From assembly GCA_024274695.1 (NCBI GenBank), contig JAJSAI010000006.1:1-52893 (forward strand): a DNA stretch of 52,893 nucleotides, in the 5' to 3' direction. A program made the translations under genes and the position numbers. The notes below the pieces were generated by a model, which ran no database searches, had not been told where the DNA came from, and saw only the letters and a list, made by a program, of their open reading frames with translations. The DNA comes from an archaeon. Lineage in GTDB: Archaea > B1Sed10-29 > JAJSAI01. This document shows positions 7,728 to 46,235 of this stretch, in pieces (position 1 is the first letter of the stretch; each line of letters begins with the position of its first letter).

Positions 7728-7852
7728 GCCTCGGTAGCACAGCGGTAGTGCGGCTGCCTTGTAAGAGCCCTTTGCGCTGAACGCGCAAAGCCCTCGGGGA
7801 AAGGCTCTAGGAAAGCAGCAGGCCGTGGGTTCGAATCCCACCCGAGGCTCCA
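7728..7852 (+). tRNA. tRNA-Thr(TGT) with 50-nt intron at 37/38 (7764-7813)
   Basis: GCCTCGG/CCGAGGC acceptor; GCTGC/GCAGC anticodon stem; strict BHB (CTTG/TAGG helix, GAGCC/GGCTC). Confidence 0.95.
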
Positions 7853-7889
7853 ACCCCCACCTCCATTCTCTCAAGAAAGGGTGAACAAA

Positions 7890-8804
7890 ATGAGCGAAAT
7901 AGAGTGTGACGTGCTAATCATAGGAGCAGGCCCTGCAGGGCTCGCGGCCAGTATCTGGACGAGCAGAAGAAAGCTCAGCACTGTGGTAGTGGAAAAAGCA
8001 ATGCCCGGCGGGCAAATGCTCTTGGCCCACGACATAGAAAACTATCCTGGAATCGAGAGGATTTCTGGACAGGAACTGGCAGAGAGGATGAAAAAGCATG
8101 CTGAAAAATTCGGTGCCAAAATAGTGTATGACATGATAACGAGAGTGTACACTGAAGGGGACAAGAAAAAAGCCGTCGGCAACACTAACACCTACACCGC
8201 AAAAGCACTGATAATAGCCACAGGCGGACAGCACAGGCCCCTCAAGGTCCCCGGGGAAGAAGAACTCGTTGGCAAGGGAGTCGCGTACTGCGCCACCTGC
8301 GACGCGCCCTTCTACAAAGGAAAAGAAGTGGCAGTCATAGGAGGAGGGAACAGCGCAGTAGAGGACGCAATATACCTGTCCAAAATAGCCAGCAAAACGT
8401 ACATCGTGCACAGGAGAGAAGAATTCAGGGCAGAGCCTGACAGGGTAGAGGAGATGGAAAGACTTGGAGTGGAAAAAATCCTGGGAAAGTCCCCCGAAAA
8501 GTTCGAAAAAAAGGAGGACGGCAGGATAGTAGTGCACTTCAAGGAAGGAGGATCTCTTGAGGTTGACGGGGTGTTCGTGTCCATAGGATACATCCCCGCC
8601 TCAGAGCTCTTCAAGGAAACAGGAATAGAATTCACCGAAACAGGGCACATAAAGACAGACCTGCAGCAGAGGACCAACATCCCTGGAATCTTCGCTGCAG
8701 GAGACGTGACAGGCAGGCTCGCCCAGATCGCCACCGCGGTAGGGGACGGGGCCGTGGCTGGGATGAACGCTTACAAGTACATTCAAAAACCTTACTGGGG
8801 ATGA
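7890..8804 (+). CDS. trxB: Thioredoxin reductase
   Basis: GAGPAG, CATCD, GGGNSA, GIFAAGD motifs. Confidence 0.96.
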   Translation: MSEIECDVLIIGAGPAGLAASIWTSRRKLSTVVVEKAMPGGQMLLAHDIENYPGIERISGQELAERMKKHAEKFGAKIVYDMITRVYTEGDKKKAVGNTNTYTAKALIIATGGQHRPLKVPGEEELVGKGVAYCATCDAPFYKGKEVAVIGGGNSAVEDAIYLSKIASKTYIVHRREEFRAEPDRVEEMERLGVEKILGKSPEKFEKKEDGRIVVHFKEGGSLEVDGVFVSIGYIPASELFKETGIEFTETGHIKTDLQQRTNIPGIFAAGDVTGRLAQIATAVGDGAVAGMNAYKYIQKPYWG

Positions 8805-9139
8805 AAATGATAAGAGTTTACAAGATAAGCGCTGAAGCGCTCAAGAACGTGAAAAAAGTCCTGGAAGCACAGGAGACCGTGGACGAGCAGGGGAACCTGG
8901 AAAAGAACGAGTTCGCCCGGAACGGGTACACCCTGCAGAACGCAAGATCACTGGACCTAGAAGGAGAAGAGTACTACCTGTACATTGACGCCCCAGAAGA
9001 CTTCTGGGAAAGGAACGAGAAAAAACTGGAGATAGAAGGAGTCACAAGACTGGAAGGAGAAGAGTACGAAAAGGTCAAGAACGCGTTCGAGAAAGGAAAA
9101 GAAGGAGTCGCCACAGGCATAGGAGCAATGTTCGGGTGA
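8801..9139 (+). CDS. Conserved archaeal hypothetical protein
   Basis: Overlaps trxB stop; acidic 112-aa protein ending GIGAMFG. Confidence 0.8.
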   Translation: MKMIRVYKISAEALKNVKKVLEAQETVDEQGNLEKNEFARNGYTLQNARSLDLEGEEYYLYIDAPEDFWERNEKKLEIEGVTRLEGEEYEKVKNAFEKGKEGVATGIGAMFG

Positions 9140-9169
9140 AAAAAGGGAGGCGAGACCCCCTTTTCTCAC

Positions 9170-9348
9170 GGGGCCGTGGGGTAGCCTGGCAGCCTTCCAG
9201 CTTCGGGAGGGAAACCGCCAGCGGGTATACCCGAAACCTTTGGTTCGGGATAATCCAAAAGGCGAAAGCCTTTTGGTATTTTCCTCTACCTTCCCGCGAC
9301 CGGAGCCCGGAAGAGCTGGCGAGCCGAGTTCAAATCTCGGCGGCCCCA
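9170..9348 (+). tRNA. tRNA-Pro(CGG) with 106-nt intron at 37/38 (9208-9313)
   Basis: GGGGCCG/CGGCCCC acceptor; CCAGC/GCTGG; BHB helix TTCG/CGGA; exons nearly identical to tRNA-Pro(GGG) at 44683. Confidence 0.94.
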
Positions 9349-9408
9349 TCACCCTGGCTGGAAAGAAACCATTTAAAAACCAGAAAGTGCCAACTATAAA
9401 CTGCTCGC

Positions 9409-9533
9409 CCCGTGGTAGCATAGTGGTAGTGCGCCCGGCTGTAGTAGAGTCTCTCGCGCTCTCGCGCGAGACCCCCTGGGGAAACCCTGCGGGGACCGGG
9501 AGATCGCCGGTTCAAATCCGGCCCACGGGACCA
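9409..9533 (+). tRNA. tRNA-Tyr(GTA) with 50-nt intron at 37/38 (9445-9494)
   Basis: C1-G72 acceptor CCCGTGG/CCACGGG; CCCGG/CCGGG; BHB helix CTGT/GCGG. Confidence 0.95.
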
Positions 9534-9542
9534 TTTTTTCAA

Positions 9543-9617
9543 GGGCCTGTAGATCAGTGGAAGATCGCCTGCCTTGCACGCAGGAGGTCGGGGGTTCAAA
9601 TCCCCCCGGGTCCACCA
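9543..9617 (+). tRNA. tRNA-Ala(TGC)
   Basis: G3.U70 pair; CCTGC-CTTGCAC-GCAGG; CCA. Confidence 0.96.
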
Positions 9618-9658
9618 AGGGAAACCTCCAGCGGGTTTCCTCTACCTTCCAGCAACCG
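9618..9658 (+). repeat. Family A tRNA-associated hairpin element
   Basis: AGGGAAACCTCCAGCGGGTTTCCTCTACCTTCCAGCAACCG; 36/41 identical to the reverse complement of 41011-41051; matches both parts of the Pro(CGG) intron. Confidence 0.85.
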
Positions 9659-9660
9659 AA

Positions 9661-9720
9661 AATAAGGGGCCGCACCCCCCTTATCAACCCTCCTCACCAG
9701 AACGAGGGGCCGCACCCCTC
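9661..9720 (+). repeat. Two related hairpins ATAAGGGG-CCGCACC-CCCCTTAT and GAGGGG-CCGCA-CCCCTC
   Basis: Shared AGGGGCCGCACCCC core; related copy at 44759-44794. Confidence 0.7.
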
Positions 9721-9738
9721 TGAAACCAGAGCACGGGC

Positions 9739-9814
9739 GGGTCCGTGGTCTAGTGGCTAGGACGCCACCCTCACACGGTGGAGATCGGTGGTTCAAATCC
9801 GCCCGGACCCACCA
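9739..9814 (+). tRNA. tRNA-Val(CAC)
   Basis: GGGTCCG/CGGACCC; CCACC-CTCACAC-GGTGG; CCA. Confidence 0.96.
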
Positions 9815-9844
9815 AAACAAAAAAACCAGCACACCAGAAAAACA

Positions 9845-9922
9845 GGTCCCGTAGTCTAGTCCGGCTAAGGATATCGGCCTTTCGAGCCGAAGACCCGGGT
9901 TCAAATCCCGGCGGGACCACCA
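9845..9922 (+). tRNA. tRNA-Glu(TTC)
   Basis: GGTCCCG/CGGGACC; TCGGC-CTTTCGA-GCCGA; CCA. Confidence 0.96.
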
Positions 9923-9933
9923 AACCGTGAGAC

Positions 9934-10009
9934 GCCCCGGTAGTCTAGCGGCCTAGGATACCGGACTGTCGATCCGGTGACCCGGGTTCAAATCCCGGCT
10001 GGGGCGCCA
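9934..10009 (+). tRNA. tRNA-Asp(GTC)
   Basis: GCCCCGG/CTGGGGC; CCGGA-CTGTCGA-TCCGG; CCA. Confidence 0.96.
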
Positions 10010-10027
10010 TACCCTCTTTCCAATCAT

Positions 10028-10103
10028 AGCCCCGTAGTCTAGCGGCCAAGGATACAGGGCTCTGGACCCTGGGACGGCGGTTCGAATCCGCCCGGGGCTA
10101 CCA
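10028..10103 (+). tRNA. tRNA-Gln(CTG)
   Basis: A1-U72 AGCCCCG/CGGGGCT; CAGGG-CTCTGGA-CCCTG; CCA. Confidence 0.96.
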
Positions 10104-10123
10104 AAAGGGAAACCGCTTGAGCT

Positions 10124-10198
10124 GGTCCCGTAGTCTAGTCCGGCTAAGGATATCGGCCTCTCGAGCCGAAGACCCGGGTTCAAATCCCGGCGGGACCA
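10124..10198 (+). tRNA. tRNA-Glu(CTC)
   Basis: Identical to tRNA-Glu(TTC) except position 34. Confidence 0.96.
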
Positions 10199-10219
10199 CG
10201 TCAAAAGCACAAAAAAGAG

Positions 10220-10323
10220 AGCCCCGTAGTCTAGCGGCCAATCCTGTTCGGCGTTGCCAGCGGGAGCCGAAAGGATGGCGGGCTTTGGACCCGCAGACGG
10301 CGGTTCGAATCCGCCCGGGGCTA
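10220..10323 (+). tRNA. tRNA-Gln(TTG) with 31-nt D-loop intron (10241-10271)
   Basis: Comparison with Gln(CTG) shows a 31-nt insert; CGGC/GCCG central helix with CA|A and AA|A bulges; GCGGG-CTTTGGA-CCCGC. Confidence 0.92.
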
Positions 10324-10346
10324 CTAGAGAGGCTGTCAAGCGGGAC

Positions 10347-10422
10347 GGGTCCGTGGTCTAGTGGCTAGGACGCCACCCTTACAAGGTGGAGATCGGTGGT
10401 TCAAATCCGCCCGGACCCACCA
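10347..10422 (+). tRNA. tRNA-Val(TAC)
   Basis: CCACC-CTTACAA-GGTGG; CCA. Confidence 0.96.
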
Positions 10423-10467
10423 GGAAACAATTTAAACCCCTGCCGCGAGAACAATAATCTGGGAGAA

Positions 10468-10543
10468 GGGTCCGTGGTCTAGTGGCTAGGACGTCGCCTT
10501 GACGTGGCGAAGATCGGTGGTTCGAATCCGCCCGGACCCACCA
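10468..10543 (+). tRNA. tRNA-Val(GAC)
   Basis: TCGCC-TTGACGT-GGCGA; CCA. Confidence 0.96.
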
Positions 10544-10567
10544 AAACAAAAAAAAACTTGGGGCACA

Positions 10568-10584
10568 GAAAAGTTTTTATATAA
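10568..10584 (+). promoter_or_regulatory. BRE/TATA promoter of the RNA polymerase operon
   Basis: GAAAAG-TTTTTATATAA upstream of rpoH. Confidence 0.65.
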
Positions 10585-10630
10585 GTGGGCTTGAACATTT
10601 CATATCCAGCTAGTTTTCGGGGGGAAACTT

Positions 10631-10864
10631 TTGAAGAAAAGCATCATCCTGGAGCATCAGCTCGTGCCGAAACACGAGATAATGACGGACGAGGAAGTCC
10701 GGGCTCTCCTCAAGGAGTATGGAGTGACCTTAGAACAGCTTCCGAAGATATTCTCAGACGATCCTGTCGTGAAAGCGATAGGCGCCAAAAAAGGACAGGT
10801 TCTTAGGATAACCAGGAACAGCCCCACGGCTGGAGAATATTACTATTACAGGGTCGTGGTCTGA
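10631..10864 (+). CDS. rpoH: RNA polymerase subunit H (Rpo5)
   Basis: HQLVPKHEI, LPKI, DPVV, SPTAG..YYRVV. Confidence 0.97.
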   Translation: MKKSIILEHQLVPKHEIMTDEEVRALLKEYGVTLEQLPKIFSDDPVVKAIGAKKGQVLRITRNSPTAGEYYYYRVVV

Positions 10865-10888
10865 GGCCCTGCAAAAGGAGACGATCGG

Positions 10889-12349
10889 ATGCCCTACTGG
10901 GAGGTAGCAGAGGCTTTCATAAAAGAGTATGGTGTTGTAAGGCAACACATTGACTCGTACAACGAGCTCATAACACACAGGATCCCACAGATAATAGAAA
11001 ACTATCCTCTTATTGAAACCAACAAGGAAAACTGTTACATAAAACTGCATTCTGTCAGAATGGAAAAACCAATAGTAGTGGAAGCAGACGGCTCAAGAAA
11101 GCCCATCCTGCCCATTGACTGCAGGCTAAGGAACAAGAGCTACTCCAGCATGATCTACGCGGACATAAGCATTCTGGACGGGGAAAAAGAGATAGACAGG
11201 GACGAGGTGATGATAGGAAAGTTCCCTGTCATGGTAAAGTCCAAGCTCTGTTACCTTTCTGAAATGAGCGAGAAGGAGCTCATCAAAGCAAAGGAAGACC
11301 CCCTGGACCAAGGAGGGTACTTCATAATAAACGGGAACGAAAGATCCCTGGTGAGCATAGAAAACCCCGTCTACAACAGGATAATGCTTGACACGGAAAA
11401 AAGATCAGGACAACTCTTGTACGTCAGCACAGTGTTCTCCCAGAGCATGTACCACTCCGGAAAGAACACTGTGAGGAGAACGCCTGACGGGTACCTTTAC
11501 GTGGAATTTCCCGCATCCCCCAAAAACCTTAACCTGTTCCTGCTCCTCAAAGCCCTGGGCCTTGAAACCACGCAAAAGATACTGAACGCATTCTCCGAAA
11601 AAGCGAGGAACGACGTGTTCCTGAACCTTGAGAAAGTGCAGGCCGAAAGCGCTGAGGAAGCGCTTGACCAGATAGGAAAGAGGCTCGCGGCAAGCCAGTC
11701 AGAGGAATACAGGAAGAGGAGGGCCGCGCACGTTATAGACAACTACCTACTGCCCCACCTGGGAAGAACACCTGAGGACAGGAAGACCAAGGCATTCTAT
11801 CTCATAAGAATGGCCGAAAGGACGATTGAAGGTGCTAGAGGAGAGAGAAAGCCTGATGACAAAGACCACTACGCGAACAAGAGGCTCAAGATATCAGGGC
11901 ACCTGCTAGAAGACCTGTTCAAGCTCGCGCTGACCGCGTTCGCAAGGGACCTGAGGTACCAGGTTGACAGGGCCCACACCAGGAGAAGAAAACTCCAGAT
12001 AAAGACCCTGGTGAGGCCGGACATTTTCACCACCAAGGTGTTCGGAGCCATGGCCACAGGAAACTGGGTCGGAGGAAGAACTGGAGTGTCCCAGCCAATA
12101 GACAGGCACTCGTACGCATCAGCAATGTCACAGATGAGAAGAGTGAGAACCCCGTTGTCCCAGACGTACCCGCACTACGAGGCCAGGGACGCACACCCGA
12201 CGACCTTCGGAAAAATATGTCCTGTGGAAACACCTGAAGGACACAACGTCGGGCTCCAGAAGCACCTTGCGATAGGATGCCTTATTTCCAGCAGGCTCGT
12301 TCCCGACGTTGAGGATGTCCTTAAGAAAATGGGAGTCAAAAGCAAGTGA
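10889..12349 (+). CDS. rpoB2: RNA polymerase subunit B'' (Rpo2N)
   Basis: GGYFIINGNER, DDKDHYANKRL, CPVETPEG. Confidence 0.97.
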   Translation: MPYWEVAEAFIKEYGVVRQHIDSYNELITHRIPQIIENYPLIETNKENCYIKLHSVRMEKPIVVEADGSRKPILPIDCRLRNKSYSSMIYADISILDGEKEIDRDEVMIGKFPVMVKSKLCYLSEMSEKELIKAKEDPLDQGGYFIINGNERSLVSIENPVYNRIMLDTEKRSGQLLYVSTVFSQSMYHSGKNTVRRTPDGYLYVEFPASPKNLNLFLLLKALGLETTQKILNAFSEKARNDVFLNLEKVQAESAEEALDQIGKRLAASQSEEYRKRRAAHVIDNYLLPHLGRTPEDRKTKAFYLIRMAERTIEGARGERKPDDKDHYANKRLKISGHLLEDLFKLALTAFARDLRYQVDRAHTRRRKLQIKTLVRPDIFTTKVFGAMATGNWVGGRTGVSQPIDRHSYASAMSQMRRVRTPLSQTYPHYEARDAHPTTFGKICPVETPEGHNVGLQKHLAIGCLISSRLVPDVEDVLKKMGVKSK

Positions 12350-12354
12350 TTCTT

Positions 12355-14172
12355 ATGAAGAAGGAAGCAAGCGTTTACTGTAACGGGAAGCTCATAGGCT
12401 TCCACCCTAACCCTGAACAGCTCGTGAAGGCTGTCCGGGAAAAAAGAAGAAAAGGAGAACTGCCCTACGATGTCACGGTAGCGTACTATCACGACCTGAA
12501 TGAAGTGTACATCAACAGCGACCCGGGCAGGGCAATGAGGCCCCTCATTATCGTAGAGAACGGCAAGCCCAAGCTCACCAAAGAACACCTGAAAATGCTC
12601 AAGGAGGGCAAGATAAAGTTCAGTGACCTTGTTAGCATGGGGGTCATAGAATTCCTTGACGCGGAAGAAGAGGAAAACGCGTACATAGCACTCAGCGAAA
12701 AAGAGCTGACCCCAGAGCACACTCACCTGGAAGTCTACCCTGCAATGCTCTTCGGGGCAATAGCATCAATGCTACCGTACCCTGAACACAACACCTCGCC
12801 CAGGGACAGCATGGCAACACAGTACATAAAACAGTCCTTGGGGCTGTTCGCGTCCAACTTCACCAAAAGGGTTGACACAAGAGCCCACGTGATGTTATAT
12901 CCTCAGAGAACGCTCGTGACCTCAAAGTTTTACGATGCCCTGGGAGCCAGCAGGAGGCCCGCCGGGCAGAACTTCGTTGTCGCAGTCCTCCCGTACTACG
13001 GTTACAACATTGACGACGCCATAGTAATGAACAAGGCAAGCATAGAAAGGGGCATTGGAAGGACGATGAGCTTCAGGACGTACGAGAACGAGGAAAGGAG
13101 GTACCCCGGAGGACAGAGGGACAGGTTCGAGAGACCCAGGCCAGAAGTCTTCGGCTACAGGGGAGAAGAGGCATACCAGTACCTTGACGAGGACGGGATA
13201 ATAGAGCCAGAGTTTGACGTGAACGAAGGAGACGTGCTCATAGGAAAAACCTCTCCCCCAAGATTCCTTGAGGACGTGAGAGAACTTGAGGTCCTGGAGG
13301 AAAAGAGAAGGGAGAACTCCACCACGGTCAGGCACAGGGAGCACGGTACCGTGGACTGGGTGCTGGCAACAGAAGGCGAAGGGAAGAACAGGCTCGTCAA
13401 GGTAAGAGTAAGGACCCTGATGATACCCGAGATCGGGGACAAGTTCGCGGCAAGGCACGGGCAAAAGGGAGTCATCGGGCTCATAGCAGACGAGGCAGAC
13501 ATGCCCTTCACCGAAAAAGGAATAATCCCTGACCTCATCTTCAACCCTCACGCTGTTCCAAGCAGAACCACGGTCGGATACCTGCTGGAAACCCTCGGGG
13601 GCAAGGTAGCCTGCATGAGAGGAAAAGAAGTTGACGCAACTCCATTTGACGGGGAGAACGAGAAAGACCTGAGGAACTTCATGAAACAGTACGGGTTCAG
13701 GGACTCAGGAAAAGAAATCCTGTACAACGGAATAACAGGAGAAAAGATGGAAGCCAGAATATTCGTGGGAGTCACGTACTACATGAGGCTCAAGCACCTG
13801 GTGGCTGACAAGATGTACGCCAGGGCAAGAGGGCCTGTCCAGATCCTAACAAGACAGCCGACAGAAGGAAGGGCCAGAGAAGGAGGACTCAGGTTCGGGG
13901 AAATGGAAAGGGACACCCTGATAGGACACGGGGCAGCGATGCTCCTGAAGGAGAGGCTGCTTGAAGAGTCTGACAAGGTAATCGAGCACGTGTGCGGAAA
14001 GTGCGGTGTGATAGCAGTGTACGACCAGGTCAGGGGAAGAAAATGGTGCCCGATATGCGGAGAGAGCAAGGACATTCACCCGATTGAAATGAGCTACGCG
14101 TTCAAGCTCCTCTTGAACGAGATAATGGCCCTCGGAATATACCCGCGGCTCGTCCTGAAGGACAGGGTGTGA
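12355..14172 (+). CDS. rpoB1: RNA polymerase subunit B' (Rpo2C)
   Basis: GDKFAARHGQKG, RQPTEGRAREGGLRFGEMERD, C-terminal Zn finger; alternative GTG start at 12346. Confidence 0.97.
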   Translation: MKKEASVYCNGKLIGFHPNPEQLVKAVREKRRKGELPYDVTVAYYHDLNEVYINSDPGRAMRPLIIVENGKPKLTKEHLKMLKEGKIKFSDLVSMGVIEFLDAEEEENAYIALSEKELTPEHTHLEVYPAMLFGAIASMLPYPEHNTSPRDSMATQYIKQSLGLFASNFTKRVDTRAHVMLYPQRTLVTSKFYDALGASRRPAGQNFVVAVLPYYGYNIDDAIVMNKASIERGIGRTMSFRTYENEERRYPGGQRDRFERPRPEVFGYRGEEAYQYLDEDGIIEPEFDVNEGDVLIGKTSPPRFLEDVRELEVLEEKRRENSTTVRHREHGTVDWVLATEGEGKNRLVKVRVRTLMIPEIGDKFAARHGQKGVIGLIADEADMPFTEKGIIPDLIFNPHAVPSRTTVGYLLETLGGKVACMRGKEVDATPFDGENEKDLRNFMKQYGFRDSGKEILYNGITGEKMEARIFVGVTYYMRLKHLVADKMYARARGPVQILTRQPTEGRAREGGLRFGEMERDTLIGHGAAMLLKERLLEESDKVIEHVCGKCGVIAVYDQVRGRKWCPICGESKDIHPIEMSYAFKLLLNEIMALGIYPRLVLKDRV

Positions 14173-14177
14173 TTAAG

Positions 14178-24505: not shown

Positions 24506-25936
24506 ATGGACGTGAGCATGTTCACGAAAATAAACGACTACGAGTGGATGATCCCAAAAAAAGGAGACATGAGAGTCCCAGGAATAGTGTTCGGGGACGA
24601 ACCAATAATCAGGGACCTGGACGAGAAAGTATGGGAACAGGTATCAAACGTGGCAACACTCCCGGGAATACAGCTCGCGAGCATTGCCATGCCTGACGCC
24701 CACTGGGGCTACGGTTTCCCTATAGGAGGAGTGGCCGCATTCGATCCCAAAGAAGGAGGCATCATCAGCGCTGGAGGCGTCGGATACGACATCAGCTGCG
24801 GGGTCAGGACCCTGAAAACGAACATGAAAAAAGAAGAAGTGCTCCCAAAGCTTTCGGAGCTGATGGAAGAACTCTTCAGAACCATCCCTGCAGGCCTGGG
24901 GTCAGAGGGAGAAATAACCCTCACAAAAGACCAGGAGGACGAAATGCTCGCCAAGGGAGCGAAATGGGCTGTGGAACAAGGTTACGGGACAGAAGAAGAC
25001 CTGGAGTACACCGAGATGCACGGGACAGCGCCTGACGCTGACCCGAGTAAGGTAAGCGATCTCGCGAAAAAAAGAGAAAAGAAGCAAGCGGGAACCCTGG
25101 GCTCAGGAAACCACTACCTTGAAGTCCAGTGGGTGGAAGAGGTTTACGATCCTGAAATAGCCAGGATATACGGCCTGGAAAAGGACCAGATCCTAATAAC
25201 ATTCCACTGCGGGTCAAGAGGACTCGGGCACCAGGTCGCCTCAGACTACATGAAAGTGCTGGACCAGGCAGCGCCGAAGTACGGGATAAAACTTCCAGAC
25301 AGACAGCTAGCGTGCGCGCCAATAGATTCCCAAGAGGGCAGGGACTACTGGCAGGCCATGAACGCAGCAATAAACAACGCGCTCGCGAACAGGCAGATAA
25401 TATCCCACCTCGCGCGGAAAGCGTTCAAGAGAGTGTTCCCGGACGCCGAACTGCCCCAGTTGTACGACACGAGCCACAACACGTGCAGGAGAGAAGAGCA
25501 CGTAGTGGACGGGGTCAAGAAGATAGTGTACGTGCACAGAAAAGGAGCCACGAGTGCCCTGGGGCCCGGCCGGCCGGAAATCCCGAAAGCATACATGAAC
25601 GCGGGCCAGCCTGTGCTGATAGGAGGAACCATGGGCACGTACTCCTACATCCTCGCGGGAACAAGAGAAGGGATGGAAAAAGCGTTCGGAAGCGCGTGCC
25701 ACGGGGCGGGCAGGAGGATGAGCAGGGCGAAAGCAAAGAAAACGTGGAAAGGAGAACAAGTCATCAGGGACCTCGCAGAAAGGGGGATAATAGTGAAAGC
25801 CCACTCCTTCAGAGGAGCTGCAGAAGAAGCCCCCGGAGCGTACAAGGACGTCAGACAGGTCGTGGACGCGGTGCACAACGCGGGCCTCGCCAAGAAGGTC
25901 GTAAGAGTAAGGCCGCTCGGGGTAGTGAAAGGGTGA
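24506..25936 (+). CDS. rtcB: RNA-splicing ligase RtcB
   Basis: MPDAHWGYGFPIGGV, GVGYDISCG, GSGNHYLE, HRKGAT, HGAGR, EEAPGAYK. Confidence 0.98.
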   Translation: MDVSMFTKINDYEWMIPKKGDMRVPGIVFGDEPIIRDLDEKVWEQVSNVATLPGIQLASIAMPDAHWGYGFPIGGVAAFDPKEGGIISAGGVGYDISCGVRTLKTNMKKEEVLPKLSELMEELFRTIPAGLGSEGEITLTKDQEDEMLAKGAKWAVEQGYGTEEDLEYTEMHGTAPDADPSKVSDLAKKREKKQAGTLGSGNHYLEVQWVEEVYDPEIARIYGLEKDQILITFHCGSRGLGHQVASDYMKVLDQAAPKYGIKLPDRQLACAPIDSQEGRDYWQAMNAAINNALANRQIISHLARKAFKRVFPDAELPQLYDTSHNTCRREEHVVDGVKKIVYVHRKGATSALGPGRPEIPKAYMNAGQPVLIGGTMGTYSYILAGTREGMEKAFGSACHGAGRRMSRAKAKKTWKGEQVIRDLAERGIIVKAHSFRGAAEEAPGAYKDVRQVVDAVHNAGLAKKVVRVRPLGVVKG

Positions 25937-38637: not shown

Positions 38638-38674
38638 AGGCTTTTTATAAAAGATTCCTGGAATAAAAAGAAAG

Positions 38675-39898: not shown

Positions 39899-40059
39899 TA
39901 AAAGAAGGAACAGAGTGCATCATCCTTAAGGGAAGTGATGCTGGAAAAAAGGTAGTAGTCAAAAAGGTGCTTGATAACACTTTCGTGGAAATAGAAGGAG
40001 AAAGAGTAAAGAGAAGGAGAATAAACGTAAGGCACATAGAACCCTTGCTCAAGGGCTGA
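39895..40059 (+). CDS. rpl14e: 50S ribosomal protein L14e, short (54 aa); not in the ORF track
   Basis: Manual translation MIKEGTECIILKGSDAGKKVVVKKVLDNTFVEIEGERVKRRRINVRHIEPLLKG*. Confidence 0.92.
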   Translation: MIKEGTECIILKGSDAGKKVVVKKVLDNTFVEIEGERVKRRRINVRHIEPLLKG

Positions 40060-40066
40060 GCAGAAG

Positions 40067-40882
40067 ATGAATGCTCTTGTTCTCGTGGACAAGCCCCCTG
40101 GCATAACCTGCGCCAGAATAGACCTCCTGGTCAGAGAATGGTCAGGGGAAAAAGTAGCGCACGCGGGAACCCTTGACCCGCAGGTCACAGGGGTCCTCCC
40201 ACTCCTGATAGGCAAGAAGGCGATCAAGCTCCTTGAGTACCTGCAGAAGAGCGAGAAGGAGTACGTCTGCCTCATGAGGGTCCAAAACGCGCAGGAAGAA
40301 AGGGTAAAGGAAGTGCTAAAGGAGTTCGTCGGAAAAGTTTACCAGACTCCCCCCGAAACCTCTGCGGTCGCGAAGAAGACGAGGGTCAGGAAGATATACA
40401 GGATAGACATTCTGGACATAGACGGAGATTACTTTCTCATAAAAGTGGCCTGCCAGCACGGGACATACATCCGCGTTCTCGTCAGGGACGTGGGAAGAGT
40501 GCTCGGGACAAAAACAGAAATGATAGAACTAAGGAGGATCAGGAGCAACGGGTTCTCAGAAGAAGAATGCGTTCCACTCGTCAGGCTAAAGGACGCGCTG
40601 AGCCTAGAGAACCCTCCAGAAGGAGTCCTCCTTCCTCTGGAAGAGGCAGTAAGGAGTCTTCCGAAGATAAAGGTTAAGAAAACTGCTGAAAAGAATATCA
40701 TAAAGGGAGCCCCGGTCATGGCCCCCGGGGTTCTTGAGAAAAATGGACACATACAAAAAGGAAAGCCTGTCGCAATACTTTCAGAGGACGGAAAGCTGAT
40801 CGGCGTTGGGATAGCGGAGTATGATAAAAACGAGTTTCCAGAGAGAGGGATTGTGGTAAGGACTCGGAAGGTCCTTGCGTAA
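40067..40882 (+). CDS. cbf5: Pseudouridine synthase Cbf5 (TruB family, PUA domain)
   Basis: DKPPG, HAGTLDP, KEYVC, GTYIR, APGV. Confidence 0.96.
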   Translation: MNALVLVDKPPGITCARIDLLVREWSGEKVAHAGTLDPQVTGVLPLLIGKKAIKLLEYLQKSEKEYVCLMRVQNAQEERVKEVLKEFVGKVYQTPPETSAVAKKTRVRKIYRIDILDIDGDYFLIKVACQHGTYIRVLVRDVGRVLGTKTEMIELRRIRSNGFSEEECVPLVRLKDALSLENPPEGVLLPLEEAVRSLPKIKVKKTAEKNIIKGAPVMAPGVLEKNGHIQKGKPVAILSEDGKLIGVGIAEYDKNEFPERGIVVRTRKVLA

Positions 40883-40919
40883 ACATTAAAATAACCTCTT
40901 CGGAAAAAGTATTAACAAT

Positions 40920-41002
40920 GCCGGGATTGCGGAGTGGTTAACGCGCCAGCCTGGAGAGCTGGTGGGCTTCGGCCCACGTGGGTTCGAATCCCACTCCCGG
41001 CG
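40920..41002 (+). tRNA. tRNA-Ser(GGA)
   Basis: Identical to tRNA-Ser(TGA) at 4634 except position 34. Confidence 0.96.
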
Positions 41003-41003
41003 T

Positions 41004-41051
41004 AGCCGGCCGGTGGCAGGAGGGTAGAGGGAACCCGCTGGAGGTTCCCCT
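41004..41051 (-). mobile_element. Family A element, inverted, between duplicated tRNA-Ser 3' ends
   Basis: Direct repeat TCCC(A/G)CTCCCGGCGT at 40989-41003 and 41052-41066; reverse complement 36/41 identical to 9618-9658. Confidence 0.75.
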
Positions 41052-41090
41052 TCCCGCTCCCGGCGTCATTAACAGCGCCCGCGGAGGACA

Positions 41091-41219
41091 GAAACCTTTT
41101 TAAACACCAGCATGAGAAAAAATAATACTCCTTTGGAGAGTACTTGGGAAAAACTGGCGAGGCCTTTCGGCCGGTGACCTACAGATAACCCCGCAAATTG
41201 TTTGAGGATCGGTGAATGT
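41091..41219 (+). promoter_or_regulatory. BRE/TATA plus ~93-nt leader of the rps13 operon
   Basis: GAAACC-TTTTTAAA; GGCC-TTTC-GGCC hairpin; GGTGA SD; motifs shared with the rpl3 leader. Confidence 0.55.
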
Positions 41220-41678
41220 ATGGCAGAGTTCAAAGGACGTCTTAGGATAGCCGGGAAAGACGTTGACGGAAACCTCCCCATACCCAAAGCCCTGAAACTG
41301 ATAAAGGGCATAGGAACGAACCTTGCTGACAGCATAGCCAAGGTGTTCTCTGCATAAGCAGGCGTCGCTTTTTCAGAGAAAGCAGGGAACCTTACTGAAG
41401 AACAGATAGCACTAATAGAAAAGATAATAGCCAACCCGACAGCCTACGGTATTCCAGCGTACATGGTGAACAGAAGAAAAGATCCCGAGACAGGGGAGGA
41501 TGTACACCTCACAGGCTCTGACCTTGACTTCGCAATAAAACAGGACAAAGAAAAGCACATGGCCCTGAAGAGCTGGAAGGGAGTAAGGTACGCTGCAGGA
41601 CTCCCTGTAAGGGGCCAGAGGACCAGAACCATGGGAAGAAAGGGTAAGACCGTTGGAGTGCACAGGAAGAAGAAGTGA
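41220..41678 (+). CDS. rps13: 30S ribosomal protein S13 with in-frame TAA at codon 46 (41355-41357)
   Basis: MAEFKGRLRIAGKDVDGN...IKGIG...FSA*AGVAF...NRRKD...GLPVRGQRTR, all in one frame. Confidence 0.93.
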
Positions 41679-41683
41679 TACTC

Positions 41684-42238
41684 ATGGGAGATCCTAGGAG
41701 ACTGAGGAAAAAGTATGACACCCCAAACCACCCTTGGGAGAAGAAAAGGATAGAAGAAGAAAAAAAGCTCGTTATAGAGTACGGTCTTAAGAACAAGAGA
41801 GAGCTCTGGCGCGCCCAGACATTGCTCAGGAAGTACAGACACCTCGCAAGAAGCCTTGTAGGACTTCCTCAAGAAGAGAGGGCAGACAAGGAAAAGGTTA
41901 TCCTCGGCAAAATGATTGACCTCGGGCTGATAAAAGAGGGAGGAAGCCTTGATGATATCCTGTCCCTGAAGGTGGAGGATATTCTTGAAAGAAGGCTTCA
42001 GACCCTCGTGTGGAAGAAGGGAATGGCTCTGACGCCAAAACAGGCGAGGCAGTTCATCGTGCACGGGCACATACAAGTCAACGGAAGGCGCACTACCGCG
42101 CCAGGGATGATCGTGGACAAGAAAACAGAGCCCACAATAGACTGGGTCAAGGAACCCATACAACTGGCTCCGCCGAAACAGCAGGCGATGGTGGAAGCGC
42201 AGGATAAAGCAATAGGAGAAGGTGAGTCGAATGCCTGA
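41684..42238 (+). CDS. rps4: 30S ribosomal protein S4
   Basis: [31 protein letters not shown]. Confidence 0.97.
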
Positions 42239-42617
42239 ACACTGGGGCGTAGCACACATTTACTCTAGCCAGAACAACACGATAATCACCCTGACAGACC
42301 TCACAGGGGCTGAAACAATAGCAAAATGCTCTGGCGGCATGGTGGTGGACGCGCAGAGAAAAGAAGGAAGCCCCTACGCCGCAATGCTCGCGGCCCAAAA
42401 GGTTGCCGAGATAGCAAAAGCAAAGGGAATAACAGGAGTGCACATAAAAGTGAGAGCCCCAGGAGGCCACTTCAGCAAGATACCTGGGCCAGGAGCACAA
42501 GCGTGCATAAGAGCCCTCGCGAGAAGCGGTCTCAGGATAGGAAGGATAGAGGACGTTACCCCAATACCACACGACACCACCAGAAGACCTGGTGGAAAGA
42601 GAGGAAGAAGACCATGA
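42231..42617 (+). CDS. rps11: 30S ribosomal protein S11
   Basis: [27 protein letters not shown]. Confidence 0.97.
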
Positions 42618-43213
42618 AGCTCACCATAAAAAAAGAGGACGAGAACAGGATAAAATTCGAGCTTACTGACGCGAACTACGCGTACGCGAACGCCCTGAGG
42701 AGAACACTCATGAGAGAAGTTCCCGTTATGGCAGTAAGAGAAATAGACCTGTACGAGAACACGAGCAGCATATTCCCGGAGTACATCGCCCACAGGATAG
42801 GAATGATCCCCCTCAAAACAGACCTGAAAAGGTACGTGCTTCCCGAAGAATGCTGCGGAGGCAACTGCTCAAAATGCTCCACCATACTAACCCTTGACGT
42901 GGAAGGGCCTAGAACAGTGTACGCGGAGGACCTCAAACCAACAGACCCTAACATCTCCCCGGTGTACGGGAGGATCCCAATAATAAAGCTGGCCGAGGGC
43001 CAGAGGCTAAGGCTGGAAGCAAAAGCAGTGCTCGGAAAGGCAAAGGACCACGCAAGATGGCAAGCGTGTCACGTGACATACAACACGAGCAACGGGAAAG
43101 ACTTCAAGTTCGAGCTGGAATCCTACGGTAACCTGCCCGCCAAGAAGATTCTTGAAAAAGGGATAAAAATACTTGAGGCCCAGGTCAAGGAGATAAAACA
43201 GAAGGTCAAATGA
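42614..43213 (+). CDS. rpoD: RNA polymerase subunit D (Rpo3), short form
   Basis: [34 protein letters not shown]; 199 aa. Confidence 0.96.
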
Positions 43214-43229
43214 AGGAGAGGACGCAGCC

Positions 43230-43595
43230 ATGAAGAGAACAGAAAAGAAGGCAAGAGAAAAAACAAACCCGTTCATACTAGAGACTGTGATAGCCCTCAA
43301 CAAGACGAAGGCAAGAGTATGGAGGGACGTTGCCGAGAGGATAGTGGCGCCCACGAGGCAGATCAAGGGAGTTCCCCTGTGGAGGATAAACAAGTACACC
43401 AACGAAGGGGACACGATAGTGGTGCCCGGGAAAGTTCTTGGCAACGGGAATATTGACCACAAGGTGACAGTGGCAGCATTGTCCTACTCGCAGGCCGCAC
43501 TTGAAAAGCTCAAGGCGGCCAAGTGCAAAACGCTCACAATAAGAGAACTGTCCAAAAAGAATCCCAAGGGCAGCGGGGTCAAGATCATAGGGTGA
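43230..43595 (+). CDS. rpl18e: 50S ribosomal protein L18e
   Basis: KTNP, VVPGKVLG, NPKGS. Confidence 0.96.
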   Translation: MKRTEKKAREKTNPFILETVIALNKTKARVWRDVAERIVAPTRQIKGVPLWRINKYTNEGDTIVVPGKVLGNGNIDHKVTVAALSYSQAALEKLKAAKCKTLTIRELSKKNPKGSGVKIIG

Positions 43596-43602
43596 AAGGA
43601 GA

Positions 43603-44022
43603 ATGAAAGTCTACGACGGGGAAAACAGTGTTCTCGGAAGACTCGCCTCCAGAGTAGCACAGGACCTGCTGGAGGGAGAGGAAGTCAGGATAATAAACGC
43701 TGAAAAGATAGTCATCACAGGAAACGAAAAGGACATAAAAGCTAAGTACGCGCACAGGTTCCAGCAGCTCACAAACGCAGCAAACCCTCGGAAAGGACCC
43801 AACAGGAGCAGGAGACCAGACTACTTCGTGAAAAGGGTCATAAGAGGAATGGTCCCAAGGAAAACAGCAAGAGGAAGAGAGGCCCTCTCCCGTCTAAAAG
43901 TTTACATCGCAGATCCTGAGCAGCTAAAAGAAAAGGCAGAAAAGTACGCTGAGTGCAGGAGCCGGAAGAAAATGACCGTGCTCGAGCTGTGCACGTGGCT
44001 CGGGTGGAGGGGTAGAGCATGA
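43603..44022 (+). CDS. rpl13: 50S ribosomal protein L13
   Basis: LGRLAS, NAEK, RVIRGMVP. Confidence 0.96.
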   Translation: MKVYDGENSVLGRLASRVAQDLLEGEEVRIINAEKIVITGNEKDIKAKYAHRFQQLTNAANPRKGPNRSRRPDYFVKRVIRGMVPRKTARGREALSRLKVYIADPEQLKEKAEKYAECRSRKKMTVLELCTWLGWRGRA

Positions 44023-44456
44023 CCGCGAAGAAAAAGAAAGAGGAAAAGATAGTCCTTGCAAGAGGAAAGAAGAAGAGCGCGGTAGCAAGAGCGAGAATAC
44101 GCGCGGGGCCCAAGAGCCTGAAGATAAACGGCAGGCCCGTGGAGACACTTAACCCTAAGATAGTCCAGGAGATAATAACCGAGCCCATAAAGCTTGCTGA
44201 GAACGTGCTCGGCGAGGGGTTCGACAACAACCTTGACATTGATGTTAACGTTTACGGCGGAGGGATAATGGGCCAAGCGTTCGCCACAAGAACCGCGATC
44301 GGGAAGGCACTGATCGCATGGACAGAATCAGAAGAGCTCAAAAAACTCTTCTCAGAGTATGACACCACCCTCGTGAAAGAGGACGTGAGGAGAAAAGAGC
44401 CTAAGAAGTACCTCAGGAAGGGAGCGAGAGCAAGGCCCACAACGTCGTACAGGTGA
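44019..44456 (+). CDS. rps9: 30S ribosomal protein S9
   Basis: [32 protein letters not shown]. Confidence 0.97.
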
Positions 44457-44463
44457 GAAAAAC

Positions 44464-44658
44464 ATGATGATCCCAGTAAGGTGCTTCTCCTGCGGCAAGC
44501 CCATAGGACACCTGTGGGAAGAGTACAAGAACAGAATAAAAGAAGAGGATCCAGAGAAAGTGCTGGACTCGCTCGGACTAGAAAGGTACTGCTGCAGGAG
44601 AATGCTTATATCCCACGTTGACCTCATAGACGATATAATCGCGTACGACCAGAAATGA
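44464..44658 (+). CDS. rpoN: RNA polymerase subunit N (Rpo10)
   Basis: [16 protein letters not shown]. Confidence 0.98.
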
Positions 44659-44682
44659 AAAAAAAGCCCCCTGCTACTATCC

Positions 44683-44758
44683 GGGGCCGTGGGGTAGCCT
44701 GGCAGCCTTTCACCTTGGGGTGGTGGCGACCCGAGTTCAAATCTCGGCGGCCCCACCA
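44683..44758 (+). tRNA. tRNA-Pro(GGG), intronless
   Basis: GGGGCCG/CGGCCCC; TCACC-TTGGGGT-GGTGG; CCA. Confidence 0.96.
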
Positions 44759-44794
44759 AATAAGGGCGCCTTCCCCGCCCTTATGAACCCTTCC
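44759..44794 (+). repeat. Hairpin element directly after the tRNA-Pro CCA
   Basis: ATAAGGGCG/CGCCCTTAT stem plus GAACCCTTCC tail; related to 9661-9693. Confidence 0.65.
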
Positions 44795-44823
44795 GTGCCG
44801 AATAAAAGTGAATTTCCCCCGCC

Positions 44824-44900
44824 GCGCGGTTAGTCTAGTCTGGTTAGGACATTGGCCTTCCAAGCCAATGACCCGGGTTCGAATCCCGGACCGCGCACCA
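44824..44900 (+). tRNA. tRNA-Gly(TCC)
   Basis: GCGCGGT/ACCGCGC; TTGGC-CTTCCAA-GCCAA; CCA. Confidence 0.96.
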
Positions 44901-44953
44901 CCACCCAAGAACTACAAACAGTTTTAAAGCACTCCTCTTTCTCTTATACTCTG

Positions 44954-46051
44954 ATGAAAAAGTTCAGAGAACTCAGCCTGCAGGAAAGAACAGAACTGCT
45001 AGGGATAGGGAAAAAGCTCTTAGAACGTTCCCTGGCCCCTGAAGACCTTGAAAGGATAGGCGAGAACCCTGCAGGCGTGCACGAGCTCCCCATCAGGATC
45101 CTGGACAGGCTGCCCGTGAACGGCAGGGAGTACACCGTGCCCCTGGTGACAGAAGAGGCTTCTGTTGTGGCCGGCGCGTGCTACGGGGCCAAGCTCTGCA
45201 GGCTTGCCGGAGGAATCCAAGCTAATGTCACAGAATCGCTGGCAAGAGCACAGGTCCTGCTGACGAGACCCTTAAAAAAGTTTGACAAGCGCAGGCTCCT
45301 GGAAAAAGCCAATGAAGGGCACAAGCATTCCAGGGCCGTTGACATTATAATAAAAAATGCTGGCAGTAAGAGGGTTCTGGAAATAGTTTTTGACCCGGGA
45401 GATGCCATGGGGGCTGCTGTGGCGAGCAGTATGGCCGAGGCAGTATCCGAGGAAATAGGCCAGGGTCTGGGGAGAGTGGTTTGCAACAAGTACGGGAGGA
45501 GAGTGCGCGCGAGCGTCAGAATCCCCGTGCAGTTGCTCGAACGAAAGCATGATGGAAGAACGATTCCTGGAGAGGAGGTCGCGCGCAGGATACAAAAGCT
45601 GAGCGAGTGGGCAGAGTCAGACCCTGACAGGGCAGTCACCCACAACAAAGGAATCATGAACGGGATCACGGCAGTCGCTCTCGCCACAGGACAAGACACC
45701 AGGGCAATAGAAGCAGCATGCCACGCGCACGCCGCCGCTAACGGAGATTATTCTCCCCTGAGCAGGTGGAGGGTTTCAGAGAAAGTGCTAGAGGGAACGC
45801 TTGAAGCAGTACTCCCGTGCGGGATTGTGGGCGGAGAACTGAAAACCTATCCGAAAACAAGGATTGCTTTGGAGATAATGGGCGTGCGCAGCGCGAACGA
45901 GCTTGCGCAGGTCATGGCAGGGGTTGGACTGGCACAGAACCTTGCTGCTTTGAGCATGCTCGCGACCATAGGCGTAACCAAAGGCCACGGAGGCCACAGG
46001 ATCCGGCTGACACCCTCAGAGGAGAAGGAAACCAATAAAAGCAGGTGGTAA
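44954..46051 (+). CDS. mvaA: HMG-CoA reductase, class II type
   Basis: TEEASVVA, GDAMGA, RAVTHNKGIMNG, ATGQDTRAIEA, GLAQNLAAL; ATG at 44954 after TTTTAAA. Confidence 0.92.
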   Translation: MKKFRELSLQERTELLGIGKKLLERSLAPEDLERIGENPAGVHELPIRILDRLPVNGREYTVPLVTEEASVVAGACYGAKLCRLAGGIQANVTESLARAQVLLTRPLKKFDKRRLLEKANEGHKHSRAVDIIIKNAGSKRVLEIVFDPGDAMGAAVASSMAEAVSEEIGQGLGRVVCNKYGRRVRASVRIPVQLLERKHDGRTIPGEEVARRIQKLSEWAESDPDRAVTHNKGIMNGITAVALATGQDTRAIEAACHAHAAANGDYSPLSRWRVSEKVLEGTLEAVLPCGIVGGELKTYPKTRIALEIMGVRSANELAQVMAGVGLAQNLAALSMLATIGVTKGHGGHRIRLTPSEEKETNKSRW

Positions 46052-46067
46052 CAGAATAAAGGATAGC

Positions 46068-46235
46068 GCGGGAGTCGCCTAGCCAGGTATGGCGCTGGAC
46101 TCAAGGAACCCTTTCCGCTGGGCGCGCGAAAGCGTTCACGGAAAAGTTGGGGACATCCAGTGGCTTAGTGTGTTTCGCCCTCCGAAGGACGGAGCGCGAG
46201 AACTGCCGCCGAGGGTTCAAATCCCTCCTCCCGCA
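46068..46235 (+). tRNA. tRNA-Leu(CAA) with 49-nt 37/38 intron (46106-46154) and ~35-nt variable-arm insert (about 46169-46203)
   Basis: Removing both inserts gives a body colinear with tRNA-Leu(TAG); CTGGA/TCCAG anticodon stem. Confidence 0.9.

Follow-up and report, generated by a model that had tools for sequence, protein, structure and literature searches.

A family of tRNA introns in a small archaeal genome shares a repeat with the layout of an intrastrand triplex

The origin of archaeal tRNA introns is an old question. To our knowledge, the sole printed proposal for how such introns are gained is the “transposition” put forward for the Thermoproteales, of which the mechanism was left unspecified. 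We analysed a stretch of 52,893 nucleotides (the window, positions 1–52893; contig JAJSAI010000006.1 of assembly GCA_024274695.1, here contig C32) from the genome of an archaeon of the lineage B1Sed10-29, hereafter G000 (825 kb in 32 contigs, 91% complete). Three tRNA genes of the window, those for Thr(TGT), Tyr(GTA) and Leu(CAA), hold introns of 49–50 nt that belong, clearly for Thr and Leu and marginally for Tyr, to one family of small repeats, which we designate family B. The unit that moves can now be named, modelled (41 positions, 12–13 pairs and a mirror tail) and searched for.

Related introns in different Thermoproteales tRNA genes have been discussed as “large-scale intron transposition” (PMC4090602, PMC3239211, 10.64898/2026.10.13.758758), and the proposal to which an earlier, sequence-only reading of the window had appealed is in print in the summary that PMC4090602 gives of Fujishima et al. 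2010. According to the passages of these sources that concern intron transposition, the Thermoproteales families share 2 features with family B: (i) similar introns with a bulge–helix–bulge (BHB) splicing motif occur in tRNAs of different identity; and (ii) their pattern is taken to reflect a gain of introns at the DNA level that is constrained by the requirement for a splicing motif. By contrast, family B (i) occurs in another lineage with a small genome; (ii) is a defined structured module that is also found outside tRNA genes, across phyla and with direct-repeat flanks; and (iii) comprises introns most pairs of which, in G000, are far below 80% identity, and all seven of which lie at the canonical position 37/38.

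Disrupted tRNA genes have also been described in ARMAN-2 (Candidatus Micrarchaeum acidiphilum), which has a three-unit epsilon2 splicing endonuclease (PMC3239211). As in ARMAN-2, many tRNA introns occur here in an ultrasmall archaeon, some of them at non-canonical positions such as the T-loop; unlike ARMAN-2, G000 encodes one 172-aa one-unit endonuclease rather than a three-unit protein. The account of ARMAN-2 in the relevant part of PMC3239211 mentions no shared intron module. A literature search, which did not extend to supplements, found no paper describing the archaeal motif; the supplementary intron tables of PMC3239211 might list relatives.

In layout, the repeat resembles the bacterial PIT/BoxC/TM repeats (Hoyne et al. 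2000 as cited by Holder et al. 2015, PMC4666352). A class II intrastrand triplex consists, as described there, of pyrimidine, purine and reverse-Hoogsteen domains in that order; purine-type (R-type) triplexes arrest polymerases, the purine-type third strand is reported not to form in RNA, and the bacterial class II motif is linked to rearranged loci (PMC4666352). Both the bacterial repeats, as far as that article describes them, and family B are short, non-coding, multi-copy repeats with 3 tracts on the same strand (pyrimidine, purine and mirror purine), and both are tied to rearranged, unstable loci. They differ in that (i) PIT/BoxC is G/C-rich, whereas the tracts described here are A/G-rich and U/C-rich, and no sequence homology is expected; (ii) the hosts of family B are archaea, its association with tRNA genes is strong, and its copies serve as spliced introns; and (iii) in family B, the second and third tracts are separated by a conserved helix of 2 bp, and the loop of this helix pairs with a fourth segment, which is located upstream of the hairpin.

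Related introns in tRNAs of different identity

The letters and coordinates of the 3 introns in the sequence-only reading were exact (Table 1), and global alignment reproduced its by-eye identities of 35 positions for Thr/Leu and 32 for Thr/Tyr, with 28 for Tyr/Leu. That reading had treated the 3 introns as homologous, and it had asked whether their alignments score any better than composition-matched random hairpins. For Thr and Leu they do. The local alignment has a z of 7.3, with none of 300 dinucleotide shuffles reaching its score, and against composition-matched shuffles that keep the 8-bp hairpin the z is 8.2 (0 of 500). The Thr–Tyr alignment has a z of 1.2 (its score reached by 40 of 300 dinucleotide shuffles) and one of 2.2–2.4 against hairpin-preserving shuffles (15–25 of 500), and its global identity is matched by 6 of 300 mononucleotide shuffles. 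Leu–Tyr is at chance level in both kinds of shuffle (95 of 300 dinucleotide and 100 of 500 hairpin-preserving).

Two covariance models were used: R1, built from six introns of G000 with the Tyr intron left out, and R2, a cross-phylum model of 41 positions and 12 pairs built from 53 copies of many genomes. The Tyr intron is the third-best match of R1 in the window (E 1e-4); the match starts at intron base 2 and is in register, with all pairs standard. R2 gave no match to the Tyr intron at E ≤ 0.1 with filters off. Thus, the homology claimed for the introns of three tRNA species stands for Thr and Leu, and the Tyr intron is a marginal or degenerate seventh member of the family.

G000 contains six clear members, in the genes for Thr(TGT), Leu(CAA), Leu(TAA) (contig C19), Arg(TCT) (C27), Arg(CCT) (C12) and Arg(GCG) (C22), all of which R1 finds at 49–54 bits. 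Similar introns are therefore present in tRNAs of different isoacceptor families. Their identity is moderate, and only the two Leu introns are nearly identical (z 19.4). The z values of other pairs are 10.7 for Thr–Arg(TCT), 6.3 for Leu(CAA)–Arg(CCT), 8.9 for Leu(CAA)–Arg(GCG) and 9.7 for Arg(CCT)–Arg(GCG), with 0 of 300 shuffles reaching the score in each of these five comparisons. Most pairs of members lie between z 3.3 and 19, and some have no direct match (for example, Thr–Arg(GCG), z 0.6). The five other introns of G000 that were compared (the Trp and Ile introns and those of a 97–107-nt family described below) do not match family B. No copy was found outside tRNA genes in G000, where the best non-seed matches score 18.3 bits with R1 (inside a 416-aa open reading frame (ORF)) and 15.6 bits with R2. 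A weak, chance-level R1 match lies at window 48437–48478, in an ORF at 48343–49167.

A direct check of the geometry revealed a BHB at position 37/38 in all seven introns, with 3-nt bulges holding the splice sites and a central helix of 4 layers formed by tRNA positions 32–35 and intron bases n−2 to n−5. This central helix explains why, as the sequence-only reading had noticed, the 3′ end of each intron fits the anticodon of its host. The central helix consists of four standard pairs in five of the seven introns, and in the two Leu introns its fourth layer is A.G. The outer helix ranges from 2 to 7 bp, with only 2 bp in Tyr, and the 5-bp anticodon stem is fully paired after removal of the intron in every case. 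In the Thr intron, the central pairs are CG/TG/TA/GT, the bulges are TA^A and AA^A, and the outer helix has 5 bp. The seven introns are thus predicted to be canonical BHB introns at 37/38. Minimum free energy folding was discarded as a route to the BHB, as it does not reproduce the motifs.

The splicing endonuclease of G000 is a single 172-aa one-unit ORF on contig C23 (7310–7825; PF01974, 110.6 bits), and neither Pfam nor a self-search at E ≤ 10 found a second homologue in this 91% complete genome. An RtcB-family RNA ligase is encoded in the window (Table 1); RtcB joins tRNA exons and circularises introns. Inserts at non-canonical tRNA positions are usually linked to broad-specificity endonucleases, and G000 has such inserts, in a variable arm and in a D-arm (described below), despite the single one-unit endonuclease detected. 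A structural subunit of the endonuclease may have escaped detection or may be encoded in the missing 9% of the genome.

Pseudoknotted fold and mirror purine tail

The element is best read as a small non-coding repeat of about 35–75 nt, whose fold was read from alignments of 59–71 copies. Along the strand, it consists of a short variable arm, a pyrimidine tract, a purine tract, a 2-bp turn helix with a 4-nt loop that pairs back with the first arm, and a mirror purine tail. The main hairpin (P2) has a 5′ arm that starts with C and a run of U, a 3′ arm that ends with a run of A and a G, and a freely variable top. Its length varies among copies, 98% of the hairpin pairs are standard, and homologous P2 pairs covary in 67 distinct copies. 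An outer helix of 3 bp (P1) pairs intron bases 2–4 with three bases further 3′; in alignment A3, the model of which did not include P1, its pairs are GC 23/CG 20/AU 6 and AU 29/GC 21. The 2-bp turn helix (S2) encloses the 3′ bases of P1; in A5, the model of which did not include S2, its pairs are CG in 67 of 67 copies and GC 49, CG 12, GU 3 and AU 2, with 1 other.

P1 and S2 together form either an H-type pseudoknot or two mutually exclusive folds. Over the whole pseudoknot, 98.4% of the cells are paired, compared with 80.7% in shuffles and at most 58.5% in slid controls, and 147 cells are changed on both sides, compared with 41 ± 7 in shuffles (0 of 500 reach this number). Two cytosines between P1 and P2 are nearly invariant and face the two G-C pairs of S2. 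The 8-bp stems that the sequence-only reading had seen in the Thr and Tyr introns are both perfect hairpins at the same place. The fold as two hairpins did not survive, since its second “hairpin” is the 2-bp turn helix, with a loop paired to intron bases 2–4, plus the mirror purine tract. A three-way junction with a separate 2-bp tetraloop hairpin was likewise dropped because the loop bases covary with intron bases 2–4. G:T pairs outnumber A:C pairs in the helices by 13 to 2, which points to the strand co-oriented with the tRNAs as the folding strand. Folding energies of the sense and antisense strands did not discriminate between them, the sense strand being more stable in 21 of 67 copies.

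The 3′ purine tail is the mirror image of the purine arm of the hairpin and is neither a direct nor an inverted copy of it. Across 82 distinct elements, the mean match of the tail with the reversed purine run is 7.07 of 8.71 positions, compared with 4.16 ± 0.18 (maximum 4.87) when tails are permuted among elements (2000 permutations). For purine runs of at least 8, the additional mirror match beyond the common first five positions is 3.74, compared with −0.34 ± 0.34. Identity of the tail is 0.85 as a mirror repeat and 0.64 as a direct repeat, and copies with differing tract patterns each carry their own mirror, over up to 15 of 17 positions. In G000, the mirror holds over 12/12 positions in Arg(GCG), 8/8 in Arg(CCT), 4/4 in Thr, 4/4 in Arg(TCT), 4/5 in Leu(CAA) and 1/5 in Leu(TAA), the last being low because of a one-base register shift. 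The copies in the window have short tracts, and the Tyr intron falls outside the mirror rule.

The order of domains (alignments A3, A5 and A6) is that of a class II intrastrand triplex. An antiparallel third tract gives G.G-C and A.A-T layers: the first layer is CGG in 54 copies, TAA in 8 and mixed in 5, and the next three layers are TAA in 64–67 of 67 rows. Watson–Crick pairing of the tail with the pyrimidine arm was rejected, as the two run in parallel and, in copies with asymmetric tracts, the match is that of a mirror repeat rather than a direct or inverted one. Because polymerase copying cannot make mirror repeats, the co-variation of tail and hairpin suggests selection for non-Watson–Crick, three-stranded pairing. 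Judged from this pattern of letters, a triplex may indeed form, and it would do so in DNA rather than in RNA.

The Arg(GCG) intron has an unusual architecture. Lying within contig C22, 10208–10441, it is 158 nt long and has the family core first, followed by 2.6 copies of a 25-nt unit (locus L003, 144–209), which is the turn-and-tail part of the element in repeated form. Its orthologue in a relative of the same genus (G001, 95% complete) is broken by a run of N at the place of the 25-nt repeats.

Distribution, instability and competing explanations

R1 matches 22 of 61 related genomes at E ≤ 0.01. R2, at E ≤ 1e-3, had matches in 16 of the phylum's 31 genomes (15 of 31 at E ≤ 1e-4), among them all 6 genomes of one family, which carry 3 to 28 copies each; the highest count, 28, is in a genome of 0.7 Mb. 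In a second phylum (that of G044), R2 gave more than 330 matches at E ≤ 1e-5, spread over 51 of 61 genomes with as many as 22 copies each, and its scores in other phyla reach 45–58 bits. At least 12 of the matches listed lie within 120 nt of a contig start, as expected of a repeat that breaks assemblies. Against Rfam, the window gave only tRNAs at gathering score, and 14 loci searched at E ≤ 1 gave tRNAs and three chance-level matches, with no family for the element. One strict, degenerate core pattern had 0 exact matches in a collection of viral contigs.

The genomic context was determined for 100 aligned copies, the best-scoring ones. Of these, 23 lie inside a predicted tRNA gene on its strand and 1, doubtful, on the opposite strand; 12 lie downstream and 10 upstream of a tRNA gene within 100 nt on the same strand; 7 follow a tRNA gene but are on the opposite strand; and 47 have no predicted tRNA within 100 nt. 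Thus, 45 of the 53 tRNA-associated copies are co-oriented with the tRNA gene, and several start 0–6 nt past the tRNA 3′ end. The element is not confined to introns: about half of the copies examined sit outside tRNA genes. Within tRNA genes, all seven introns of G000 are at 37/38, one copy in G003 is in the D-loop region, and one in G001 is in the T-loop. A crude survey of ORFs in loci of 1.5 kb gave no clear rule.

Signs of rearrangement surround the copies. Direct repeats of 14–51 nt bracket 17 of the 71 copies with enough flanking sequence, compared with a longest common string of 13 in 399 cross-locus pairings, and in 15 of the 17 the upstream repeat ends 0–9 nt before the element. These repeats are often the first 14–26 or the last 20–26 bases of a tRNA gene, of which an intact copy remains. 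None of the intron copies of G000 has flanking direct repeats. One copy is nested, inverted, inside another. Units of target fragment plus element occur in tandem, as 81-nt units upstream of a tRNA-Ser gene (G018), as 95-nt units in the 5′ end of an ORF (G024) and as a 132-nt unit repeated 6.4 times before a tRNA-Lys gene (G112), and three copies surround a tRNA-Gly gene (G024). At locus L066 (G024, contig C44, 343–570), two copies of the element lie between three copies of a 41-nt stretch that holds the start codon and first codons of an ORF; by eye only, the N-terminal peptide of the window ORF at 48343–49167 resembles that of the L066 ORF.

Comparison with G001 covered 31 loci, which account for most of the 41 tRNA matches of Rfam in that genome but do not include Arg(CCT) and Leu(TAA). 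The differences are as follows: (i) Thr(TGT), which has near-identical exons in the two genomes, holds the family-B intron in G000 and, at the same site, a 58-nt intron of the 97–107-nt family in G001; (ii) Thr(CGT) has an intron of the latter family (a 57–58-nt version) in G001 and no intron in G000, and Pro(TGG) and Pro(CGG) have introns in G000 only; (iii) the Leu(CAA) and Tyr introns of G001 are reduced to the hairpin (34 and 35 nt), without turn and tail; and (iv) inserts in the Tyr T-loop, the Ala(TGC) D-loop and the Lys T-loop are found in G001 only, the Lys insert holding a full family-B core (R2 54.8 bits) that its G000 counterpart lacks. The two genomes agree in having family B in Arg(TCT) and Arg(GCG). 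What the sequence-only reading had proposed is borne out in part: the six members in G000, the hundreds of copies elsewhere, and the replacement, gain and loss seen in G001 support a lineage of introns or repeats in which the fold is conserved and covaries, which tRNAs of different identity share and which bears signs of turnover. The element is thus met in several states, namely spliced introns, insertions in leaders or trailers where tRNA ends are duplicated, tandem arrays and decaying, hairpin-only remnants, and these states differ between two species of one genus.

The reading that we favour, with a probability of about 0.55, is that the family-B introns are an unstable, self-spreading DNA repeat of the intrastrand-triplex type, which is tolerated in tRNA genes through splicing. 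A single DNA strand, the non-template strand where a copy is co-oriented with a tRNA gene, would fold back twice to give a hairpin and a third strand. Such a structure would stall polymerases and provoke template switching, which may be the means by which the repeat spreads and would make it unstable and self-propagating; this would explain why copies occur in tandem, between direct repeats or nested, and why close relatives gain, lose and swap them. A copy inside a tRNA gene would survive only if the transcript forms a BHB around it, so that the splicing endonuclease could cut it out and RtcB could join the exons. In G000, six copies and the degenerate Tyr copy would persist in this way as ordinary 37/38 introns.

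Several observations weigh against this reading. The strict co-orientation in tRNA genes is expected of a process or function at the RNA level and need not result from DNA insertion; the 12 trailer copies (0–100 nt) and the 10 leader copies fit an RNA released by tRNA-processing enzymes; and core letters kept across at least 2 phyla are odd for junk DNA, barring transfer or strong constraint. A search for empty sites at high identity gave none for any repeat-flanked copy, and for a repeat-flanked copy of G024 the four related genomes gave only fragments of 71–77% identity. Neither a reverse transcriptase (PF00078, RVT_1) nor a Y1 transposase (PF01797) was found in G000, G023, G024, G102 and G106 (completeness 67–93%), high-copy genomes included; this sets the element apart from IS200/IS605- or REP/RAYT-type hairpin elements and from retroelements, and with no mobility enzyme in these five genomes the mechanism of spread is one that we infer. 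The case for a triplex is a pattern in the sequence, and the permutation tests overstate its significance since the copies are related. Moreover, the G:T excess may partly be a product of the scoring of the model itself, and the context counts come from the best-scoring copies rather than from a random sample.

In the main rival explanation, to which we give less than half the weight of the favoured one, tRNA transcripts would carry the element as a small RNA with a function or as a module for RNA stability. It would be a compact pseudoknot with its A-rich tail docked on the hairpin; the splicing endonuclease would free it from introns, RNase Z from trailers and RNase P from leaders, and the excised RNA, possibly circular, would serve the cell in some way. 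The co-orientation inside tRNA genes (23 copies against 1 doubtful) and that of the 22 further same-strand copies within 100 nt agree with such a role, as do the covariation of both pseudoknot helices in alignments fitted to neither, the preponderance of G:T over A:C, which indicates the transcribed-sense strand, the conservation of the core across phyla, and the presence of a gene for RtcB, an intron circulariser. However, in G001, the orthologous introns of Tyr and Leu(CAA) have neither turn nor tail, so the host does not need this module there; copy number varies from 0 to 28 within one phylum, with none in 15 of 31 genomes at E ≤ 1e-3; seven copies are antisense to the neighbouring tRNA, an ORF has one in its duplicated 5′ end, and one copy contains another; even a search of Rfam at E ≤ 1 gave no matching family; and a mirror purine third strand is reported, in the article that defines the bacterial class, not to form in RNA (PMC4666352). 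The functional excised RNA that the sequence-only reading had contemplated finds no support in this evidence.

A host signal acting in cis at tRNA loci, either a stop or boundary made of a T-tract and a hairpin or a mark for processing, replication or recombination, with the intron copies as by-products, would account for the 53 of 100 copies in or within 100 nt of a tRNA gene (tRNA genes make up an estimated 1–2% of such genomes, judged from 45 genes in 825 kb), for the many copies that begin at a tRNA 3′ end with a T-rich tract, and for some that lie 7–46 nt past the end of an ORF on the same strand. We consider such a signal quite improbable: introns of essential tRNAs contain the same T-tracts, with as many as six T, and a stop there would be harmful; the offset from tRNA starts varies from 24 to 65 nt; 47 of the 100 copies have no tRNA within 100 nt; presence at the same tRNA genes differs between congeners; and a terminator needs no mirror tail. 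Even less credit, next to none, is due to an explanation without mobility, in which one ancient intron was passed on by tRNA duplication, anticodon switching and gene conversion and the rest is convergence of A/U-rich hairpins. In its favour, the introns of the paralogous genes Leu(CAA) and Leu(TAA) are close (z 19), one type of intron is common to Thr(CGT) and Thr(TGT) in G001, as if by gene conversion, and distant genomes have the Arg(CCT), Leu(TAA) and Thr introns in tRNAs of the same types. But the hosts Thr, Leu, Arg and Tyr are not close paralogues, and still their introns match at z 6–11; it is largely refuted by the copies that lie elsewhere than in tRNA genes, in either orientation, some nested and some between direct repeats; the T-loop copy of G001 is missing from the matching gene of G000; and 45–58 bits in other phyla exclude convergence.

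Under the favoured reading of a self-spreading DNA repeat, intron gain becomes testable by comparison of strains and by simple oligonucleotide biophysics, and intrastrand triplex repeats, so far bacterial, are extended to archaea. More tentatively, and at odds well short of even, pseudoknotted hairpins that bring their own third strand may be a nucleic-acid structure of a new, self-propagating class. They would spread without transposase or reverse transcriptase through the tRNA loci of at least 2 archaeal phyla, by structure-induced template switching on the non-template strand of highly transcribed genes, and would be the main source of new tRNA introns in these lineages. If such a class exists, it would provide the first concrete DNA-level mechanism for the gain of archaeal tRNA introns and a natural case of a triple helix under selection.

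Host genes and other inserts

In G000, 45 tRNA genes are predicted, 22 of which are on this 53-kb contig, including a run of nine at window 9543–10543. ARAGORN, with introns allowed, predicts an intervening sequence in 14 of the 45 and recovers all seven hosts of family-B introns, but it mislabels two of those in the window. Thr(TGT) is called Ser(tga), with the intron placed three bases early, and Tyr(GTA) is called His(gtg), with the intron shifted by a few bases. The near-identical exons of the G001 gene are called Thr(tgt), in support of the Thr identity. The Leu(CAA) gene has no Rfam match at gathering score. For annotators, this is a warning that inserts of this kind cause many tRNA genes of small archaea to be missed or mislabelled, as exemplified by Thr as Ser, Tyr as His, and Leu(CAA) as overlooked by Rfam.

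Table 1. Window coordinates of the three intron-bearing tRNA genes, the parts of their introns, and the RNA ligase gene.
Feature	Position	Strand	Basis and details
tRNA-Thr(TGT), one intron	7728..7852	+	Rfam tRNA 7728–7849, 59.9 bits, insert skipped; ARAGORN; BHB geometry gives TGT
Family-B intron of tRNA-Thr, 50 nt, position 37/38	7764..7813	+	hBHBh' motif; R1 53.8 bits, R2 48.5 bits
Thr intron, main hairpin P2	7770..7790	+	Arms 7770–7777 (pyrimidine-start) and 7783–7790 (purine-end), loop 7778–7782; perfect 8-bp stem
Thr intron, turn and tail	7791..7803	+	Turn helix 7791–7792/7797–7798; mirror tail 7799–7803
Thr intron, P1	7765–7767 paired with turn-loop bases 7793–7795	+	Alignment column counts
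tRNA-Tyr(GTA), one intron	9409..9533	+	Rfam tRNA 9409–9530, 58.9 bits, insert skipped; BHB geometry gives GTA
Intron of tRNA-Tyr, 50 nt, position 37/38, marginal or degenerate member	9445..9494	+	R1 21.3 bits; canonical central helix and bulges
Tyr intron, parts	Hairpin arms 9452–9459/9464–9471; turn helix 9472–9473/9478–9479; A-rich tract 9480–9484	+	
tRNA-Leu(CAA), two intervening sequences	46068..46235	+	ARAGORN with introns; comparison with G001 Leu(CAA)
Family-B intron of tRNA-Leu(CAA), 49 nt, position 37/38	46106..46154	+	R1 53.2 bits, R2 45.0 bits; BHB
Leu(CAA) intron, helices	P1 46106–46108/46135–46137; hairpin 46111–46118/46124–46132; turn 46133–46134/46139–46140	+	
Leu(CAA) intron, tail	46141–46146	+	Mirror at 4/5 positions
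RtcB-family RNA ligase	24638..25933	+	PF01139, 576 bits; 481-aa open frame without stops

The second intervening sequence of tRNA-Leu(CAA) is an insert of about 35 nt in the variable arm (window 46171–46205, with boundaries ambiguous by 1–2 nt) that has a small hairpin of its own, and Leu(CAA) of G001 is without it. Another gene, at window 10220–10324, is called Arg(tcg) with a 19-nt intron by ARAGORN, and its anticodon arm reads TTG (Gln) by eye. It seems to be interrupted by about 30 nt in the D-arm region and has only a partial tRNA match in Rfam (32 bits, 10263–10323); a gene resembling it is present in G001 (C1:758–874).

The second intron family, of 97–107 nt, comprises introns of Pro(TGG), Pro(CGG) and Arg(TCG) (window 2427–2600 and 9170–9348; contig C9, 13045–13229). 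The Pro(TGG) and Arg(TCG) introns match each other with a z of 9.4, and the Pro(CGG) intron has no significant match to either. The tRNA-Trp gene (contig C17, 474–606) has a 60-nt intron that is unrelated to family B and is kept in G001 with small changes.

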